From positions 1-11,144 of the IMG/VR virus record IMGVR_UViG_2695420643_000004: DNA of 11,144 nt; one strand, given 5' to 3'. Source of the stretch: a virus. Taxonomy: Duplodnaviria > Heunggongvirae > Uroviricota > Caudoviricetes. Below the pieces are notes generated by a model that made no database searches, had not been told where the DNA came from, and was given only the letters and a program-made list of their open reading frames with translations. The position numbers were made by a program, and so were the translations under genes. The stretch's first letter is position 1. Every line of letters begins with the position of its first letter. This document shows, in pieces, positions 1 through 11,144 of the stretch.

Positions 1-360
1 CCCGTTCCTGATGGTGTGGCGATGACGGGTACCGGTAATCCGTTCCTGATGTCGTACTTCACTCAGACCACTGACGGCAGAGTGAATCTGATGCATCACA
101 GGAAAGCCGGAAACACGAAGCTGGGGGAGTTCGGCGATTACGGTAACGACTGGCAGACGCTGGAGCTGGTGTTCACCGCCGGCAGTGCCACGGTTACTCC
201 GAAACTGAATGGAGTGGCTGGCCCGGCATTCCAGGTTATAAAAGACAGTCTGACACTGGGACTGAATGCGCTGACGCTGACGGATGTTACAAAAAATGCA
301 GCGTATGGCGTTGAGATAGAAAGTCTGGTGCTGGAGATAAATGCACCGGCATCATCATAA
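1..360 (+). CDS. 3' end of an upstream gene (5'-partial; C-terminal 119 aa, Gly/Thr/Asn-rich, probably beta-rich); product not recognised
   Basis: Frame 1 is open from base 1 to TAA at 358-360; the ORF-track start at 16 is only the first in-frame GTG. Sits upstream of the holin, the slot where lambdoid phages carry morons. No family recognised from this fragment. Confidence 0.55.
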
Positions 361-445
361 AAAGTGAGCCAGTCAAATGGAAGGTATCGTTAAACTCACC
401 GGTAGTGTCAGTGGGTCGTCTGAGACGCCTGCATGAGTTATCAGA

Positions 446-474
446 GCCATCAGTAGTTAACTGGTGGCTTTTTT
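446..474 (+). terminator. Intrinsic terminator-like hairpin downstream of the upstream gene
   Basis: Stem GCCATCAG (446-453) pairs with CTGGTGGC (461-468), one G-U wobble, 7-nt loop, followed by TTTTTT (469-474). Confidence 0.45.
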
Positions 475-509
475 ATTGTTGTCAGCTTCCGGATAACGGG
501 AGACGGGGT

Positions 510-725
510 ATGTACCAGATGGAAAAAATCACAACAGGTGTGTCATACACCACGTCAGCGGTGGGGACGGGATACTGGTTACTGCAGCTGCTGGACAAAG
601 TCTCTCCGTCCCAGTGGGTGGCAATAGGCGTGCTGGGGAGTCTGCTGTTTGGTCTGCTGACGTACCTGACGAACCTGTATTTCAAAATCAGAGAAGACCG
701 GCGTAAGGCGGCGCGGGGAGAGTAG
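510..725 (+). CDS. S: Class II holin (pinholin), phage 21 S / DLP12 EssD-like, 71 aa with dual start (Met1 at 510, Met4 at 519)
   Basis: [10 protein letters not shown]... has two TM segments: a Gly/Ala/Ser-rich TMD1 (SAR-like) and TMD2 [18 protein letters not shown], then a charged tail [24 protein letters not shown] lies just upstream of the ATG. The ORF-track start at 405 is an upstream in-frame start without a comparable RBS. Confidence 0.88.
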
Positions 726-728
726 ACG

Positions 729-1370
729 ATGAACCATGAAGAAATGAATCAGCGCATAAGTTGCCTGGAAAATGAAATCACTGAACTGAATAAAAAACTG
801 TCGGTGCTGATGGTTTCTGAAGATGAAAAAAAACGCCGCGATGAGCAGGAAGCAGCGTTTTACGATGATTGCATCAAAATTGCTCGCAGGACCTTTGCGA
901 AGATTTTGCAGGAAAAGTTTTTACCGACCGCATTGTCAGAAAAGTACTCCATTACAGTTAAAAGTGCCGGAGAGGAAGGCAATAAACGTTATTTTATTGC
1001 GTCTGCACCGGATAAAGACCAGGAATGGGGGGATAATCGGCCATCTTTTATTGTGACAAGCGATGACTGGAATATCACGATCCGTGAAGATGGAAAAGTA
1101 ACACCAGCATCGCACCAGCACAGTGAGGCGCTCATTGAATTTGCCATTGATTACCTGAAGAACAATAAAAAGCAGGGACTAATGAAGCGCATTGGTCGTT
1201 GCATGGGATATCTGCAGGTAGCTGCTGAGATTGAAGCGCTGGCCAGTGGTGCGGACAAGGATGCAGTTGTGCGGGAGGCTCTTCTTCGTGATTTTGATAA
1301 TCCGCCCTTTAAAAAAGTGCCGGCTTACTGGTTTCATCCAGGACTGACTTATCTTAAAGGACGTATATAA
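729..1370 (+). CDS. Hypothetical protein, 213 aa, soluble, N-terminal coiled-coil-like segment; inserted between holin and endolysin
   Basis: ATG is 3 nt after the holin stop with GGGGAGAG 7 nt upstream, so it is probably translationally coupled to S. Visibly AT-rich compared with flanking phage genes. No TM segment or signal peptide, and no family recognised. Confidence 0.7.
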   Translation: MNHEEMNQRISCLENEITELNKKLSVLMVSEDEKKRRDEQEAAFYDDCIKIARRTFAKILQEKFLPTALSEKYSITVKSAGEEGNKRYFIASAPDKDQEWGDNRPSFIVTSDDWNITIREDGKVTPASHQHSEALIEFAIDYLKNNKKQGLMKRIGRCMGYLQVAAEIEALASGADKDAVVREALLRDFDNPPFKKVPAYWFHPGLTYLKGRI

Positions 1371-1379
1371 GCTGGCTCG

Positions 1380-1736
1380 TTATCTGTTGCCGGATAATCG
1401 ACGGAAGATGCGTTCTTTTTGTGATTTGGCGTAATGATGATCCCACTCACATTCAAGGTAGTTTAATTCTTCGTTTAACCAGTCATTTATATTGTCTTTC
1501 AGACGTAGAAGCATGGCTGGTGTTAATATTCTGGACATAATGTCGAGAGTTGGTGGTGTGAGGTGTCCATACGGCTCAGCCTGAATGGATTTTACTGCTT
1601 CGTGGTTTTGCTGAATGAGTTTAAGGAATGCTGATTTAAATTGTTCATTCATGGCCTGCATGCAGGCGGTATATTTATGTTCATCGTTATACATTGCTAA
1701 ATCCTCGACGGGAATTGTCAGATATATTTCAGCCAT
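1380..1736 (-). CDS. Hypothetical protein, 118 aa from ATG at 1736 (122 aa if the GTG at 1748 is used); convergent with the preceding gene
   Basis: Only long ORF in the AT-rich 1371-1822 interval, where random ORFs this long are uncommon. Its stop is 9 bp from the stop of the 729-1370 gene. The RBS is weak and no family is recognised. Confidence 0.45.
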   Translation of the reverse strand: MAEIYLTIPVEDLAMYNDEHKYTACMQAMNEQFKSAFLKLIQQNHEAVKSIQAEPYGHLTPPTLDIMSRILTPAMLLRLKDNINDWLNEELNYLECEWDHHYAKSQKERIFRRLSGNR

Positions 1737-1822
1737 CAGGTAAAACACCAGTGCCCACCACTGGCGGGCTGAAGACTTAACATATCCAGGGATTCGGAAC
1801 CGATAAATCCTGATAAATATCC

Positions 1823-2356
1823 ATGAACACCAAAATCAAATACGGTCTGTCGGCTGCCGTTCTGGCGCTGATTGCCGCAGGTGCGCCTGCGCCTGAAATC
1901 CTCGACCAGTTTCTGGATGAAAAGGAAGGTAACCACACCACGGCATACCGTGATGGTGCGGGGATCTGGACCATCTGCCGTGGAGCCACCCGGGTGGATG
2001 GTAAGCCTGTTATTCCTGGCATGAAGCTGTCAAAGGAAAAATGCGACCGGGTTAACGCCATTGAACGTGATAAGGCGCTGGCATGGGTGGCGAAAAACAT
2101 CAAAGTGCCACTGACTGAACCCCAGAAAGCGGGGATCGCGTCATTCTGCCCGTATAACATTGGCCCCGGTAAGTGTTTCCCGTCGACGTTTTATAAACGA
2201 ATTAATGCAGGCGATCGCAGGGGAGCGTGTGAAGCGATTCGCTGGTGGATTAAGGATGGTGGCAGAGACTGCCGTATCCGCTCAAACAACTGTTACGGTC
2301 AGATATCCCGTCGTGACCAGGAGAGCGCGCTGACGTGCTGGGGAATCGACAGATAA
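1823..2356 (+). CDS. R: SAR endolysin (T4-lysozyme-like muramidase, GH24), DLP12 RrrD-like
   Basis: N-terminal signal-anchor-release segment YGLSAAVLALIAAGAPAP, then the lysozyme catalytic spacing E(GNHTTAYR)D(GAGIW)T. No Shine-Dalgarno motif is visible within about 15 nt upstream of the ATG. Confidence 0.9.
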   Translation: MNTKIKYGLSAAVLALIAAGAPAPEILDQFLDEKEGNHTTAYRDGAGIWTICRGATRVDGKPVIPGMKLSKEKCDRVNAIERDKALAWVAKNIKVPLTEPQKAGIASFCPYNIGPGKCFPSTFYKRINAGDRRGACEAIRWWIKDGGRDCRIRSNNCYGQISRRDQESALTCWGIDR

Positions 2357-2445
2357 GCAGAATATTTTGCTGAAAAATGACGTTGACCAACGCGGACGGA
2401 TAACACGAAATCCTGCGAACTGGCAAAACCTAAGTGAATAAAAGT

Positions 2446-2485
2446 AAAACCCCGTTTGTTGGCAGCAAGCGGGGTTTTGTGTTTC
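2446..2485 (+). terminator. Intrinsic terminator-like hairpin downstream of R
   Basis: AAAACCCCGTTTG (2446-2458) pairs with CAAGCGGGGTTTT (2466-2478), 7-nt loop, one G-U wobble, followed by a T-rich run GTGTTTCTG. Confidence 0.45.
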
Positions 2486-2511
2486 TGACCTTGGATAAGG
2501 CAAGGGAGAAC

Positions 2512-2694
2512 ATGGAAAAGTATAAACGAATTCTGTTGAGGTTGACTATGAAAAACGGCCTTGAACTGAAAGCGCCTGTAACTGATGACATCAGCAGAGC
2601 GCTGGCTTTTGCTATTAAGTGGGTGGCGGTCGGTATTGCTGTGTCTCCGATGCTGTATGGGCTGGCAAAACTGGTCATTGCGTTGAAATCGTGA
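2512..2694 (+). CDS. Small hypothetical membrane protein, 60 aa, with a C-terminal hydrophobic helix
   Basis: ATG at 2512 is preceded by AGGGAGAA. Predicted TM segment WVAVGIAVSPMLYGLAKLVIAL. The ORF-track start at 2434 is a GTG inside the terminator hairpin and is unlikely. Confidence 0.5.
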   Translation: MEKYKRILLRLTMKNGLELKAPVTDDISRALAFAIKWVAVGIAVSPMLYGLAKLVIALKS

Positions 2695-2706
2695 AGAGGA
2701 TTAAGC

Positions 2707-2838
2707 ATGTCAGACAAGCTCATAACGCTGGCGAAGATCCTCTGTGTAATCGTCGGCATTTCATTTTCACTAATGCTGGTTGCTCTTAGGCTGGATGATG
2801 TTGTCTTCGTCGGGGATGCTGGGGTGAGGGGGATATGA
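2707..2838 (+). CDS. Small hypothetical membrane peptide, 43 aa ([43 protein letters not shown])
   Basis: ATG at 2707 with GAGGA upstream; one predicted TM helix; its stop overlaps the Rz start (ATATGA). Not in the ORF track because it is short. Confidence 0.4.
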
Positions 2839-3302
2839 ACCGTGTTCTGTGTGTGGTGATTATTGTCCTGCTGGTAGCCTGTGGTGCGCTTGGTCTGGGG
2901 CTGAATCATTACCGCGATAACGCCATCACCTACAAAGCGCAGCGCGATAAAAAAGTCAGAGAGCTGGAGCTGGCGAACGCGACAATTACTGATATGCAGA
3001 TACGCCAGCGTGATGTCGCTGCGCTCGATGCAAAATACTCGAAGGAATTAGCCGATGCGAGAGCTGAAAATGAAACTCTGCGTGCTGATGTTGCCGCTGG
3101 TCGTAAGCGCCTGCGGATCAACGCCACCTGCCCCGGTACCGTGCGTGAAGCCACCGGCACCTCCGGCGTGGATAATGCAACCGGCCCCCGACTGGCAGAC
3201 ACCGCTGAACGGGATTATTTCATCCTCAGAGAACGGTTGATGATGATGCAGAAGCAGCTGGAAGGGGCGCAGGAATATATCCGCACTCAGTGTATTAACT
3301 AG
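2835..3302 (+). CDS. Rz: Rz i-spanin (inner-membrane spanin subunit), 155 aa
   Basis: N-terminal TM anchor and a coiled-coil periplasmic domain with the conserved [15 protein letters not shown]...[12 protein letters not shown] motif close to lambda Rz; nested Rz1 in the +1 frame. Confidence 0.9.
3055..3240 (+). CDS. Rz1: Rz1 o-spanin (outer-membrane lipoprotein), embedded within Rz in the +1 frame
   Basis: Lipobox LVVSAC followed by a proline-rich mature region ([32 protein letters not shown]) resembling lambda Rz1. Start could be the ATG at 3055 or 3070. Confidence 0.85.
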
Positions 3303-3325
3303 TATTTTTGTTATCCGGAGAATGC

Positions 3326-3550
3326 ATGAAGAAATTACTGGTAACCGTAAAGCCTTTTCAGGGAACAATTCCGTTCCGTGTTTTGCAGCGTGGTCGTGTT
3401 CTTATTGAAGGTTCGTTCAGTGGTAAATGTACGCAATTACACTCCCGGACCTTTCAGGTGAATGCCACGAATGAAGAGCTAACCGTGGAGTGTACGATGA
3501 ATGCCGCTAAATGCCGCATGGCATCCGCTGCATTACAGCCAGTGTGTTGA
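3326..3550 (+). CDS. Hypothetical small protein, 74 aa, four Cys, no signal peptide; in the Rz-to-cos moron slot
   Basis: ATG at 3326 preceded by CCGGAGAA. The ORF-track start at 3308 is TTG. Not Bor-like (no lipoprotein signal). Possible relationship to small DLP12-region proteins such as YbcW is unverified. Confidence 0.45.
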   Translation: MKKLLVTVKPFQGTIPFRVLQRGRVLIEGSFSGKCTQLHSRTFQVNATNEELTVECTMNAAKCRMASAALQPVC

Positions 3551-3809
3551 GCGACCTTATTATCCATGCGCGGTATTGTCGCCGTATTCCCGTATTAACA
3601 GAGACCGCAGCCCGACAGGGAGACTCCTCTGCGCGAGTGTGCGGGGATAATCAAAAACGATACACACCGGGGTTTACCGCGTTAACGGAGCGCGGCGTTG
3701 TCCCCTCATGGTCGCTGGTCCGGTGCGATGGTGGAAGAAACTGGATTTTGTTGCAACTGATAATCATTATTGTTTTCGCGGGTCCTTTCCGGCGATCCGG
3801 GCCGTTACG

Positions 3810-3821
3810 GGGCGGCGACCT
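3810..3821. other. cosN: cosN cohesive-end sequence GGGCGGCGACCT (12-nt lambda-type overhang, terminase nicking site)
   Basis: Exact match to the lambda left cohesive end as recalled. Flanks (CGGGCCGTTACG upstream, CGCGGGTTTTCGCTATTTATGAAAATTTTCCGG downstream) match recalled lambda genome ends. Confidence 0.85.
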
Positions 3822-3860
3822 CGCGGGTTTTCGCTATTTATGAAAATTTTCCGGGGAAAA

Positions 3861-3969
3861 TCATGTCGGTACTTCTCGAACATAACTATTTGTTTTTTCT
3901 AATATCGAATCCGTAAAGGTCCGACATGAAAACGCCTGAAAAAGTCATTTTCGGGCACTTTCATGTCGG
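3861..3969. promoter_or_regulatory. cosB: cosB: three putative small-terminase R elements (TCATGTCGG at 3861-3869 forward, 3920-3928 inverted, 3961-3969 forward) with an A/T-rich putative IHF site (about 3881-3912) between the first and second
   Basis: Three copies of one 9-mer in alternating orientation within 110 bp between cosN and nu1, mirroring the lambda R3-I1-R2-R1 layout. The motif differs from the lambda R element as I recall it (CGTTTCC core). Confidence 0.6.
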
Positions 3970-3996
3970 ATCCTGTATTTGTTGTGAGACTGTTTC

Positions 3997-4516
3997 ATGA
4001 AGGTTAATAAAAAGAAACTTGCCGAAATTTTCAACGTGGATCCGCGAACGATTGAACGCTGGCAGTCTCAGGGGCTCCCTTGCGTCTCCGGAGGTGGTAA
4101 GGGCGTTGAATCTGTATTTGATACCGCCACGGCAATTCAGTGGTATGCGCAGAGGGAAGCTGATATCGAAAATGAAAAACTCCGTAAAGAGGTTGAGGAT
4201 TACAGGGCTGCCAGCGAGGCAGATCTCCAGCCTGGGACTATTGAGTACGAACGCCATCGACTTACGCGTGCGCAGGCTGACGCCCAGGAGCTGAAGAATG
4301 CCAGAGACTCCGCAGAAGTGGTGGAAACCGCATTCTGTACTTTCGTGCTGTCACGGATCGCAGGTGAAATTGCCAGTATTCTTGACGGGATCCCTCTCTC
4401 AGTACAGCGGCGTTTTCCGGAACTGGAAAACCGACATGTTGATTTCCTGAAACGGGATATTATCAAAGCCATGAACAAAGCAGCCGCGCTGGATGAACTG
4501 ATACCGGGGTTGCTGA

Positions 4517-4542
<26 letters not shown>
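3997..4542 (+). CDS. nu1: Terminase small subunit (Nu1/gp1), 181 aa
   Basis: The C-terminal two thirds match lambda Nu1 as recalled ([56 protein letters not shown]...). The N-terminal DNA-binding domain is divergent. Overlaps A by 26 nt as in lambda. Confidence 0.95.
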
Positions 4543-8223
<3,681 letters not shown>

Positions 8224-8243
<20 letters not shown>

Positions 8244-9543
8244 TCTCCCGCATATTGCCAGCATGGCTTTTAATGAGCCGCTGATGCTTGAACCCGCCTA
8301 TGCGCGGGTTTTCTTTTGTGCGCTTGCAGGCCAGCTTGGGATCAGCCGCCTGACGGATGCAGTATCCGGCGACAGCCTGACTGCCGGAGAGGCACCCGCG
8401 GCGCTGGCGTTATCCGGTGATGATGACGGACCACGACAGGCCCGCAGTTATCAGGTCATGAACGGCATCGCCGTGCTGCCGGTGTCCGGTACGCTGGTCA
8501 GCCGGACGCGGGCGCTGCAGCCGTATTCGGGAATGACCGGTTACAACGGCATTATCGCCCGTCTGCAACAGGCTGCCAGCGATCCGATGGTGGACGGCAT
8601 TCTGCTGGATATGGACACACCGGGCGGGATGGTGGCGGGAGCATTTGACTGTGCTGACATCATTGCCCGTGTGCGAGACATAAAACCGGTATGGGCGCTG
8701 GCCAACGACATGAACTGCAGTGCAGGTCAGCTGCTTGCCAGCGCCGCCTCCCGGCGTCTGGTCACGCAGACCGCCCGGACAGGCTCCATCGGCGTCATGA
8801 TGGCTCACAGTAATTACGGTGCTGCGCTGGAGAAACAGGGCGTGGAAATCACGCTGATTTACAGCGGCAGCCATAAGGTGGATGGCAACCCCTACAGCCA
8901 TCTACCGGATGATGTCCGGGAAACACTGCAGTCCCGGATGGATGCAACCCGCCGGATGTTTGCACAGAAGGTGTCGGCATATACCGGCCTGTCCGTGCAG
9001 GCTGTGCTGGATACCGAGGCTGCAGTGTACAGCGGTCAGGAGGCCATTGATGCCGGACTGGCTGATGAACTTGTGAACAGTACCGATGCGATCACCGTCA
9101 TGCGTGATGCACTGGATGCACGTAAATCCCGTCTCTCAGGAGGGCGAATGACCAAAGAGACTCAATCAACAACTGTTTCAGCCACTGCTTCGCAGGCTGA
9201 CGTTACTGGCGTGGTGCAAGCGACGGAGGGCGAGAACGCCAGCGCTGCGCAGCCGGACGTGAACGCGCAGATCACCGCAGCGGTTGCGGCAGAAAACAGT
9301 CGCATTATGGGGATCCTCAACTGTGAGGAGGCTCACGGACGCGAAGAACAGGCATGCGTGCTGGCCGAAACCCCCGGTATGACCGTGGAAACGGCCCGCC
9401 GTATTCTGGCCGCAGCACCACAGAGTGCACAGGCGCGCAGTGACACTGCGCTGGATCGTCTGATGCAGGGGGCACCGGCACCGCTGGCTGCAGGTAACCC
9501 GGCATCTGATGCCGTTAACGATTTGCTGAACACACCAGTGTAA
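8224..9543 (+). CDS. C: Head maturation protease / minor capsid protein gpC, 439 aa, GTG start overlapping the B 3' end
   Basis: Protein from GTG at 8224 (TAELRNLPHIASMAFNEPLMLEP...) matches lambda C as recalled. The ORF-track start at 8089 lies inside B and is rejected. Confidence 0.92.
8938..9543 (+). CDS. nu3: Scaffolding protein Nu3, in-frame internal start within C, 201 aa
   Basis: Internal ATG at 8938 (MDATRRMFAQK...) in the C frame, sharing the C stop; position collinear with lambda nu3. Confidence 0.7.
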   Translation: MDATRRMFAQKVSAYTGLSVQAVLDTEAAVYSGQEAIDAGLADELVNSTDAITVMRDALDARKSRLSGGRMTKETQSTTVSATASQADVTGVVQATEGENASAAQPDVNAQITAAVAAENSRIMGILNCEEAHGREEQACVLAETPGMTVETARRILAAAPQSAQARSDTALDRLMQGAPAPLAAGNPASDAVNDLLNTPV

Positions 9544-9552
9544 GGGATGTTT

Positions 9553-9885
9553 ATGACGAGCAAAGAAACCTTTACCCATTACCAGCCGCTGGGCAACAGT
9601 GACCCGGCTCATACCGCAACCGCGCCCGGCGGATTGAGTGCGAAAGCGCCTGCAATGACCCCGCTGATGCTGGACACCTCCACCCGTAAGCTGGTTGCGT
9701 GGGATGGCACCACCGACGGTGCTGCCGTTGGCATTCTTGCAGTTGCTGCTGACCAGACCAGCACCACACTGACGTTCTACAAGTCCGGCACGTTCCGTTA
9801 TGAGGATGTGCTCTGGCCGGAGGCTGCCAGCGACGAGACGAAAAAACGGACCGCGTTTGCCGGAACGGCAATCAGCATCGTTTAA
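9553..9885 (+). CDS. D: Head decoration protein gpD, 110 aa
   Basis: [27 protein letters not shown]... matches lambda D as recalled. The second ATG (9553) is chosen over the first (9547), with AAGGGA upstream. Confidence 0.94.
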
Positions 9886-9902
9886 CCTGACCCTTCATCA
9901 CT

Positions 9903-9927
9903 AAAGGCCGCCTGTGCGGCTTTTTTT
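9903..9927 (+). terminator. Stem-loop with T-run in the D-E intergenic region (terminator-like or mRNA-processing structure)
   Basis: GCCGC (9907-9911) pairs with GCGGC (9916-9920), loop CTGT, flanking A/T pairs, then TTTTTTT (9921-9927). Confidence 0.4.
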
Positions 9928-9940
9928 ACGGGATTTTTTT

Positions 9941-10966
9941 ATGTCGATGTACACAACCGCCCAGCTGCTGGCGGCAAATGAGCAGAAATTTAAGTTTGAT
10001 CCGCTGTTTCTGCGTCTCTTTTTCCGTGAGAGCTATCCCTTCACTACGGAGAAAGTCTATCTCTCACAAATTCCGGGACTGGTAAACATGGCGCTGTACG
10101 TTTCGCCGATTGTTTCCGGTGAGGTTATCCGTTCCCGTGGCGGCTCCACCTCTGAATTTACGCCGGGATATGTCAAACCCAAGCATGAAGTGAATCCGCA
10201 GATGACCCTGCGTCGCCTGCCGGATGAAGATCCGCAGAATCTGGCGGACCCGGCTTACCGCCGCCGTCGCATCATCATGCAGAACATGCGTGACGAAGAG
10301 CTGGCCATTGCTCAGGTCGAAGAGATGCAGGCAGTTTCTGCCGTGCTCAAGGGCAAATACACCATGACCGGTGAAGCCTTCGATCCGGTTGAGGTGGATA
10401 TGGGCCGCAGTGCGACGAACAACATCACGCAGTCCGGCGGCACGGAGTGGAGCAAGCGTGACAAGTCCACGTATGACCCGACCGACGATATCGAAGCCTA
10501 CGCGCTGAACGCCAGCGGCGTGGTGAATATCATCGTGTTTGACCCGAAAGGCTGGGCGCTGTTCCGTTCCTTCAAAGCCGTCAGGGAGAAGCTGGATACC
10601 CGTCGCGGCTCTCATTCCGAACTGGAGACAGCGGTAAAAGACCTGGGCAAAGCGGTGTCTTATAAGGGAATGTATGGCGATGTGGCCATCGTCGTGTATT
10701 CCGGACAGTACGTGGAAAACGGCGTCAAAAAGAACTTCCTGCCGGACAACACGATGGTGCTGGGTAACACTCATGCACGCGGTCTGCGCACCTATGGCTG
10801 TATTCAGGATGCGGATGCATTGAGTGAGGGTATTAATGCGTCTCCCCGTTATCCGAAAAACTGGAAGACATCCGGCGATCCGGCGCGAGAGTTCACCATG
10901 ATTCAGTCAGCACCGCTGATGCTGCTGGCTGATCCTGATGAGTTCGTGTCCGTTCAACTGGCGTAA
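9941..10966 (+). CDS. E: Major capsid protein gpE, 341 aa
   Basis: MSMYTTAQLLAANEQKFKFDPLFLRLFF... matches lambda E as recalled. The ORF-track start at 9914 is upstream and in frame but runs through the hairpin; ATG 9941 is used. Confidence 0.96.
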   Translation: MSMYTTAQLLAANEQKFKFDPLFLRLFFRESYPFTTEKVYLSQIPGLVNMALYVSPIVSGEVIRSRGGSTSEFTPGYVKPKHEVNPQMTLRRLPDEDPQNLADPAYRRRRIIMQNMRDEELAIAQVEEMQAVSAVLKGKYTMTGEAFDPVEVDMGRSATNNITQSGGTEWSKRDKSTYDPTDDIEAYALNASGVVNIIVFDPKGWALFRSFKAVREKLDTRRGSHSELETAVKDLGKAVSYKGMYGDVAIVVYSGQYVENGVKKNFLPDNTMVLGNTHARGLRTYGCIQDADALSEGINASPRYPKNWKTSGDPAREFTMIQSAPLMLLADPDEFVSVQLA

Positions 10967-10968
10967 TC

Positions 10969-10990
10969 ATGGCCCTTAGGGGCCATTTTC
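10969..10990 (+). terminator. Stem-loop in the E-FI intergenic region followed by a T-rich tract
   Basis: ATGGCCC paired with GGGCCAT around a 4-nt loop (10969-10986), then TTTCTCTCT. Confidence 0.3.
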
Positions 10991-11007
10991 TCTCTGTGGA
11001 GGAGTCC

Positions 11008-11144
11008 ATGACGAAAGATGAACTGATTGCCCGTCTCCGGTCGCTGGGTGAGCAACTGAACCGTGATGTCAGCCTGACGGGGACGAAAGAAGAACTGGCG
11101 CTCCGTGTGGCAGAGCTGGAAGAGGAGCTTGATGACACGGATGA
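11008..11144 (+). CDS. FI: DNA packaging protein FI (3'-partial, first 45 codons)
   Basis: MTKDELIARLRSLGEQLNRDVSLTGTKEELALRVAELEEELDDTD matches the lambda FI N-terminus as recalled; GGAGGAG RBS upstream. Confidence 0.88.
   Translation, partial: MTKDELIARLRSLGEQLNRDVSLTGTKEELALRVAELEEELDDTD

Follow-up and report, generated by a model that had tools for sequence, protein, structure and literature searches.

A minus-strand gene between the holin and lysozyme genes of a lambda-like prophage, a candidate lysogeny-phase moron

Introduction

The stretch of DNA analyzed here, positions 1 to 11,144 of the IMG/VR virus record IMGVR_UViG_2695420643_000004 (11,144 nucleotides (nt), hereafter the window), is the late region of a lambda-like prophage of the Shiga toxin (Stx) phage type. 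Its lysis cassette carries the holin gene S, an accessory gene of 213 amino acids (aa), which we call the forward gene, and the lysozyme gene R. Between the forward gene and R lies a small gene on the opposite strand, the antisense gene, which is the subject of this work (Table 1). An earlier note made from the sequence alone had described this gene as lying head-on within a plus-strand late operon, and that layout is borne out, with S and the forward gene upstream of it and R, Rz/Rz1, the terminase and the head genes downstream. S and R are 1097 nt apart, the frame at 1380-1748 is the single sizeable minus-strand open reading frame (ORF) of the window, and no plus-strand gene overlaps it.

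Table 1. Features of the late region in and around the S-R interval, in plus-strand order (E, expect value)
Feature	Position	Strand	Remarks
End of DUF6645/esterase-type gene	First in window, before S	+	
S, phage-21-type class II holin	510-725	+	PF04971, E 4.2e-32; dual-start motif MYQM
Forward 213-aa accessory gene	729-1370	+	PHROG 1085; convergent with antisense gene, 9-nt gap between stop codons
Antisense gene, likeliest coding sequence	1380-1694	-	104 aa plus stop; PHROG 1853; based on conserved start and length and on dN/dS
In-frame upstream extension of the ORF	1695-1748	-	Not conserved among lineages
Shine-Dalgarno sequence GAGGA	1702-1706	-	7 nt before ATG 1694; GAGGA or GGAGA in lineages A-C
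GC-rich leader hairpin CGCCAGUG-GUGGG-CACUGGUG, then UUUU	1742-1766 (stem-loop 1766-1746)	-	About +4 to +31 of the predicted mRNA
Predicted transcription start	1770-1772	-	From the start site of the EDL933 homologue; leader of about 78 nt
Candidate -10 hexamer TATGTT	1779-1784	-	GGA precedes it, with the G at -14 but without the T at -15
Candidate -35 hexamer TTTATC	1802-1807	-	17-nt spacer; 15 nt from the R start codon, within the R translation-initiation region
R, phage lysozyme, 177 aa	1823-2356	+	PF00959, E 2.7e-24; hydrophobic N-terminus; divergent from antisense gene
Two small ORFs between R and Rz, 86 aa (PHROG 1115) and 43 aa	2434-2838	+	
Rz/Rz1	2835-3302 and 3055-3240	+	
Terminase/head homologues Nu1, A, W, B, C, D, E	Downstream of cos site	+	

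A conserved coding sequence and its start

Read mechanically, the minus-strand ORF runs from GTG 1748 to the stop codon at 1382-1380 and has 122 aa. The RefSeq call of the Prokaryotic Genome Annotation Pipeline in the 100%-identical prophage of strain 08-00022 (WP_371832131.1) begins at ATG 1736 and has 118 aa. The earlier note had mixed these two starts, giving 118 aa for 1380-1748; the ORF that it pointed to is real, and its figures need correcting. The most likely true start is a third codon, ATG 1694, with a predicted product of 104 aa. The methionine aligned to it is the start of every full-length homologue (101-107 residues), in-frame stops lie just upstream of that methionine in lineages B, D and E, and it is the sole candidate start with a Shine-Dalgarno sequence, none being found ahead of ATG 1736 or GTG 1748. 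The segment upstream of ATG 1694 is probably a 5' leader and not coding sequence, and GTG 1748 itself falls within the leader hairpin. RefSeq starts differ within the family, with 118 aa in lineage A, 104 aa in B and 90 aa (from an internal methionine) in D; the comparison supports about 104 aa for all lineages.

The 122-aa ORF matches the PHROG 1853 profile over residues 13-121 with an E of 8.4e-47, and the homologue of the type found in Escherichia coli EDL933 matches the same profile with an E of 3.5e-47. A word search of 5.8 billion proteins returned 12 clusters, every one from E. coli, and an exhaustive HMMER scan of 1.8 billion representatives returned 18 matches that include 105-107-aa proteins at 26-47% identity. 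Homologues at 24-85% identity retain a length of about 104-107 aa. They fall into six lineages, A (the window type) to F, between which the pairwise Nei-Gojobori ratio of nonsynonymous to synonymous substitution (dN/dS) is 0.17-0.49, with dS ranging up to saturation, and these values indicate moderate purifying selection on a fast-evolving protein. The reading frame is intact in about 80 of the 84 family-bearing loci and a few copies are truncated or frameshifted. A full-length DNA match is found at all 132 places in 95 complete E. coli genomes, with a coding-sequence annotation in every listed row. Disruption of the ORF in closely related functional prophages had been named as grounds for dropping the idea; the frame is instead intact in the inducible Stx2 phage 86 (orf6) and in nearly all prophage copies.

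The lack of a Pfam or NCBIfam family, the inconsistent annotated start (90, 104 or 118 aa) and the occasional frameshifted copy might suggest a chance frame or an annotation artefact on the back of the late operon. That reading is effectively refuted by the PHROG profile match, by the same length in homologues at 24-47% identity, by a dN/dS far under 1, by the high-confidence fold and the mapped promoter of a homologue (both described below), and by the fact that no forward-strand gene runs across the ORF. Judged by comparison among its homologues, the antisense ORF is a genuine protein-coding gene.

Of 5426 complete E. coli genomes, 95 carry a member of lineages A-C and 631 carry lineage D, the latter at an identity of at least 99% in 623 records. 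Lineage D is the form present in O157:H7 strains Sakai (ECs_1097, prophage Sp4) and EDL933 (EDL933_RS06280, prophage CP-933M). About 13% of complete E. coli genomes thus hold a PHROG 1853-type member, including the O157:H7 and O104:H4 outbreak lineages, and every copy is annotated as "hypothetical protein", with three different start codons. A scan of genome contigs from one genome per species found no relative.

A putative promoter region and its mapped counterpart in EDL933

It had also been proposed that the gene has its own promoter in the interval 1749-1822, where a weak -35/-10 arrangement lies on the minus strand. The spacer between the antisense start codon at 1694 and the R start codon measures 128 nt (117-128 nt across loci), and the TTTATC and TATGTT hexamers within it, with their 17-nt spacing, are identical in lineages A-D, at 83-85 nt from the start codon. 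The leader downstream of the promoter is wholly different in lineages A-C and D-F, and the hexamers are kept nonetheless.

For the lineage-D gene, which we identified in the EDL933 genome, start sites are available from a published genome-wide Cappable-seq study; 5'-triphosphate ends are enriched in this method, and agreement of all three replicates was required (PMC10469882). For gene 6280 the study gives (Table S5) a start site at 1272853 (+) in eight of eight conditions, all of them uninduced: exponential and stationary phase in lysogeny broth (LB), in M9, in LB with acid and in LB with salt. Its mean relative read scores (31-72 per million, Table S7) are like those that the table gives for ordinary chromosomal genes. 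In the EDL933 sequence this position is an A that follows TATGTT by exactly 7 nt; in that strain the hexamer is part of an extended -10, TGaTATGTT. Stationary-phase cultures in LB, with or without acid, have a secondary start at 1272864, which follows by 7 nt a TATAAT specific to lineages D and F. Because the EDL933 start lies 7 nt after the same -10, the weak -35/-10 of the window is the conserved counterpart of a mapped promoter, and since this promoter fires in all uninduced conditions the gene would be a lysogeny-phase gene. Expression in the lysogen, which the earlier note had expected, is thus documented for the EDL933 homologue and holds for the window phage by homology only; we infer that the window copy is transcribed in the same way.

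On the late strand the EDL933 tables show only single-condition signals for the lysozyme gene, below noise according to the authors (PMC10469882), and these sub-threshold signals agree with R relying on read-through from pR'. A plus-strand promoter for R in the spacer was considered and found no support: none appears in the consensus scan, and the EDL933 late-strand signals are sub-threshold. We also sought the same promoter before the lysozyme gene of EDL933 prophage CP-933K, where S abuts R and the locus is uninformative. The sole site that passes the consensus promoter scan in 300-3400 is at 2548-2519, on the minus strand of the R-Rz region. On the plus strand of the S-to-R interval the same scan gave no promoter-like site and one weak terminator-like site with a 5-bp stem, at 1654-1667 within the antisense gene.

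The predicted leader begins with a GC-rich hairpin with a folding energy of -13.3 kcal/mol and a z score of only -1.6. Among nine leader variants 98% of cells are paired, and the four varying positions are each one-sided and always C-to-U. Such changes keep a G.U pair on the minus-strand RNA and leave an A.C mismatch on the plus strand, and the pairing is therefore compatible with a minus-strand RNA only; no double compensatory change was found among the nine variants. The hairpin recurs, without its U-run, before an unrelated cargo gene (locus L093) and has no equivalent in lineage D. It could be a leader attenuator or a 5' stabilizer, or it may have no role. As the principal explanation we rejected a terminator of transcripts entering from R, since the conserved promoter lies upstream of the hairpin and two variants lack the U-run. 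An optional outer stem, pairing 1772-1767 with 1734-1729, could enclose it.

A polymorphic antisense slot between S and R

In related cassettes S and R are neighbors: they are 4 nt apart in Sakai Sp5, and in the K-12 Qin prophage, where there is no antisense gene, ydfR overlaps rrrQ. Since S abuts R in relatives, the S-R gap is an insertion site. The position of the antisense gene next to R is invariant over about 85 loci with two holin types, one locus having a lambda-S-type holin in place of the S21-type. The gene diverges from an R21-type lysozyme wherever the locus extends that far, and it is always convergent with the gene after the holin. Its GC content is 0.40 and that of the forward gene is 0.44, compared with 0.54-0.55 for S, R, Rz and terminase. 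Two marks of the accessory phage genes known as morons are therefore present, namely extra DNA between otherwise adjacent genes and a deviating base composition; the third, an own promoter in the repressed prophage, is present by homology only.

To survey the gap we used a 28-nt anchor that takes in both the R start codon and the -35, which gave 110 usable IMG/VR loci. The PHROG 1853 family of the window occupies 14-15 of these. The most frequent occupant is a 90-aa protein of PHROG 2411 (about 40-44 loci), and 29-37 loci have no cargo, with YdfR followed by R. PHROG 18136 is found in 6 loci, PHROG 2572 in 5, an unclassified protein of about 210 aa in 3 and PHROG 10490 in 1-2. Alignment of the PHROG 1853-type family profile with four other slot cargos by hhalign gave probabilities below 1%, and we therefore kept them as separate families; no cargo has a known function. 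The S-R gap thus behaves as a polymorphic antisense slot behind a shared putative promoter region, filled by at least six unrelated small-protein families. The promoter region could persist in cassettes without cargo as a remnant, through selection on the 5' untranslated region (UTR) of R, or because antisense transcription is of use in itself.

The forward gene is a mosaic, with a variable N-terminal module (a coiled coil here, DUF1327/YdfR elsewhere) joined to a C-terminal domain of about 118 aa. This domain is strongly conserved (MKRIGRCMGYLQ...PGLTYLKGRI) and accompanies lineages A-C in 14 of 14 loci found with the R anchor, as well as in all other loci examined. Lineage D lacks it and has the antisense gene alone, at about 255 nt from S; O104:H4 strain 2011C-3493 combines a forward pseudogene with an intact antisense gene. 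Because of these two cases we regard the antisense gene as independent of the forward gene. The AlphaFold2 model of the 213-aa forward protein was too poor for a fold search, with a mean predicted local distance difference test (pLDDT) of 54.

In Sakai Sp4 (locus L092, 23366-26376) and EDL933 CP-933M (locus L096, 15697-18707) the holin, antisense gene, lysozyme and Rz are inverted relative to Q and the head genes, and S and R there are consequently not readable from pR'. The inverted module adjoins pchA/PerC and is flanked by the insertion sequences IS629 and IS66.

The protein and searches for its function

The antisense-gene product is a 12.4 kDa soluble, hydrophilic protein with an isoelectric point of 6.5. 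Its AlphaFold2 model is a confident five-helix bundle (pLDDT 92, predicted template modeling score 0.84). The highest Kyte-Doolittle mean over 19 residues is 0.94, and there is no transmembrane segment and no signal peptide. We found no enzyme, DNA-binding, membrane or secretion signature in the protein.

Several known kinds of lysis-cassette element were compared with the gene. Membership of the Lambda Bor family (PF06291) is contradicted by the lack of both a Pfam match and a hydrophobic N-terminus. An antiholin or membrane lysis regulator of the S21-71, T4 RI or P1 LydB type is likewise not indicated, the protein having no transmembrane segment and the gene lying on the strand opposite S and R. 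For a type I toxin-antitoxin or cis-antisense RNA of the hok/sok type there is no Rfam match in 300-4000 even at E<=1, and unlike such an RNA the antisense transcript has coding capacity, with a conserved ORF of 104 codons that is under purifying selection. A hit to Cas6b among the PADLOC defense profiles, with an E of 0.015 over 48 residues, was judged spurious. Text searches on the names of homologues (ECs1097, WP_000138558, EDL933_RS06280, O3K_RS10485 and others) returned no paper. ECs1097 is absent from the list in the Sakai RIBOseq supplement, and the Sakai values for the neighboring ECs1098 were set aside as evidence for the antisense gene, ECs1098 being an ORF on the opposite strand.

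Proposed mechanism and alternatives

We propose, with a probability of roughly 0.6, that the antisense gene is an independently transcribed moron between S and R, with its own weak-consensus sigma-70 promoter, which is on in lysogeny and silenced on induction and whose product binds a partner. From the promoter in the 128-nt spacer, minus-strand transcription would start at about 1772-1770, and the leader, some 78 nt long, would hold the 5'-proximal hairpin and the GAGGA ribosome-binding site. The soluble, roughly neutral five-helix product of 12 kDa would bind another protein in the cytoplasm of the lysogen, with a role of the host-benefit or anti-phage type, as one expects of morons by default (PMC3594210). 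Once the prophage is induced, Q-modified polymerases arriving from the S side would cross the antisense gene and its promoter and silence it by occlusion and collision. Silencing is to be expected because the gene is head-on to the late transcript, shielded by no more than one weak terminator-like hairpin, and because its promoter lies within the 45 nt upstream of R. The earlier note had likewise suggested shut-off on induction, a part in lysogenic conversion or defense and a possible attenuation of R transcription by collision; its reading is borne out in part, for the head-on layout and, through the EDL933 homologue, for the promoter.

A number of observations weigh against this proposal. 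The standard consensus scan finds no sigma-70 site in 1695-1822; in a position-weight scan TTTATC-17-TATGTT is the top candidate with a score equal to the median best of shuffled sequence, and it matches the consensus at only 7 of 12 positions. The EDL933 homologue with the mapped start is only 53% identical to the window protein, and the window promoter, with GGA in place of TGA, may be weaker or inactive. The EDL933 lysis module is inverted relative to Q, so that its start-site data are silent on behavior under convergent late transcription. The R-proximal 50 nt are also present without an antisense gene (locus L094), and their conservation could therefore reflect the 5' UTR of R. A terminator scan flags the leader hairpin, which lies between the predicted start and the ORF. 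As for a terminator of its own, another mark of morons, the consensus scan gives no terminator-like site on the minus strand past the stop at 1380, the nearest being a weak one at 901-883 inside the forward gene (Rho-dependent termination is not amenable to such a scan). The gene occurs mostly in prophages, some of them defective, and among 50,697 GenBank phage records in only 3 distinct phages, including Stx2-converting phage 86 (orf6). Nothing points to a function: Pfam and NCBIfam scans gave no match, the fold search with the protein model gave no informative relative, and PADLOC-DB 2.0 defense profiles gave no credible match.

Some of these points would also suit a reading in which antisense transcription itself is selected. 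A constitutive outward promoter would then produce RNA antisense to the forward gene and S, the RNA and the collisions would curb leaky lysis genes in the lysogen, and the ORF would be a passenger or secondary. The sequence next to R that bears the promoter persists beside six unrelated cargos and also in 29 of 110 loci that have none, and the promoter reaches into the translation-initiation region of R. Between the antisense gene and its neighbors on the other side, the forward gene and S, lies no terminator, and a low level of late-strand transcription does occur in uninduced cells, with 18-24 reads per kilobase per million (RPKM) for ECs1098/ECs1100. We nevertheless hold this to be unlikely, as a dN/dS of 0.17-0.49 and a conserved length in six lineages imply selection on the protein, and phages of the Sp5/933W type do without such an element. 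It is harder still to see the protein as a regulator of lysis. Produced in the lysogen or soon after induction, it would in that case restrain the pinholin and SAR endolysin from the cytoplasm and so guard against premature or accidental lysis. Leakily expressed signal-anchor-release (SAR) endolysins such as R21 and P1 Lyz are dangerous, and the PHROG 1853-type family is found only inside lysis cassettes and always beside an R21-type lysozyme. We take the R of the window to be of this SAR type from its sequence and from general knowledge of R21-type lysozymes. Yet the slot is taken by unrelated proteins in other cassettes and is empty in many, the family also occurs beside a lambda-S-type holin, and the orientation of the gene opposes co-expression with S and R. 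S21 and R21 work in or across the membrane, but the antisense-gene product has neither a membrane segment nor a signal.

The constant company of the forward C-terminal domain, found with lineages A-C in 14/14 R-anchor loci and at all the others examined, suggests a further reading, in which the two genes form a convergent module and the lysogen-made protein neutralizes or partners the late-made one in the manner of antidote and effector. Their stop codons are 9 nt apart, and the N-terminal modules of the forward gene are swapped while its C-terminal domain stays. Such a module is improbable given that lineage D, the commonest with 631 genomes, lacks the forward domain and that in O104:H4 the antisense gene is intact beside a forward pseudogene; the linkage may moreover be shared descent of a block of DNA. 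Returning to the moron that we favor, its setting admits a wider and more tentative suggestion: the 45-60 nt before R in cassettes of the S21/R21 type could possibly be a dedicated platform, in which a constitutive outward promoter placed in the R initiation region drives a swappable antisense cargo and is switched off automatically under Q-dependent late transcription. The cargos, including the 104-aa helical protein, would then be as yet undescribed factors for prophage defense, lysis safety or host modulation. If this were true, the platform would be a repressor-independent slot of lambdoid prophages that is on in lysogeny and off in lysis.

Relation to known systems

The morons of lambdoid phages (Juhala et al. 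2000), of which HK97 gene 15 is an example, have been reviewed (PMC3594210). Like them, the antisense gene is extra DNA between genes that are adjacent in related phages, has a deviant GC content and a putative promoter of its own for the repressed prophage, and is small with a function not evident from sequence. HK97 gp15 is encoded co-directionally in the tail operon with its own terminator and is a membrane superinfection-exclusion protein. The window gene, unlike that of gp15, is antisense, has no recognizable terminator, encodes a predicted soluble product and has its putative promoter inside the translation-initiation region of R.

Lambda bor is closer in layout, being a minus-strand gene in the late region near the lysis genes. 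Barondess and Beckwith, in 1990 and 1995, are said to have found it transcribed in lysogens from its own promoter, against the late transcript. In Stx2 phage 86 and in Sp5 bor is annotated in the minus-strand orientation. Bor, which is cited in the same review of morons (PMC3594210), is an outer-membrane lipoprotein that confers serum resistance, and its gene comes after Rz/Rz1. The window protein, in contrast, has no signal peptide or Bor domain and its gene lies between S and R. In layout the antisense gene is a moron of the bor-like kind; it resembles bor in no other way and encodes neither a Bor homologue nor a known defense protein. Separately, the published EDL933 tables contain a reproducible minus-strand start at 902742 (-) of NZ_CP008957.1, at the end of the Rz gene of CP-933K (PMC10469882), the place where bor-type morons sit.

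Two further comparisons concern the arrangement of transcription. Weak promoters that face a strong, processive phage transcript, with reciprocal interference and silencing of the weaker promoter once the stronger fires as the expected outcome, are represented by pR/pL of coliphage 186 and by paQ of lambda, which gives an antisense RNA within Q. Those are regulatory switches with measured interference; for the window gene interference would follow from the head-on geometry, and its antisense transcript codes for a conserved protein. YdfR/DUF1327 between S and R (essQ-ydfR-rrrQ in K-12 Qin) and ant between R and Rz (933W/Sp5) are, like the antisense gene, inserted genes of no known function in S21/R21 cassettes, and YdfR modules are often immediate neighbors of the antisense slot. 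YdfR and ant are co-directional and carried by the late transcript, unlike the antisense-slot genes, which would use their own promoter. The kind of element is already known, and this antisense family and its slot are undescribed in the literature searched.

As the layout repeats that of bor and other morons, it will not surprise a phage specialist. A real gene with a corrected start and a homologue transcribed in uninduced cells is a concrete candidate for a lysogeny-phase prophage function, and the polymorphic antisense slot between S and R offers a simple route to more such candidates. The slot is also a natural system in which to study how a moron promoter and an antiterminated late transcript interfere when they meet head-on.

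Other features of the window

Between the esterase-type gene and S, at 443-471 (+), there is a strong-looking hairpin of the intrinsic-terminator type, with a 12-bp stem followed by a T-run. The late transcript would have to pass this hairpin, which fits antitermination by Q. Farther downstream a lambda-type cosN (GGGCGGCGACCT) lies at 3810-3821 and is followed by a lambda-like cos flank. Sub-threshold matches to the Rfam family "MIR8001" on both strands correspond to a palindrome upstream of Nu1. This inverted repeat, TCCGACATGAAA...TTTCATGTCGGA, lies directly upstream of Nu1 at about 3919-3973 and probably represents terminase-binding sites.

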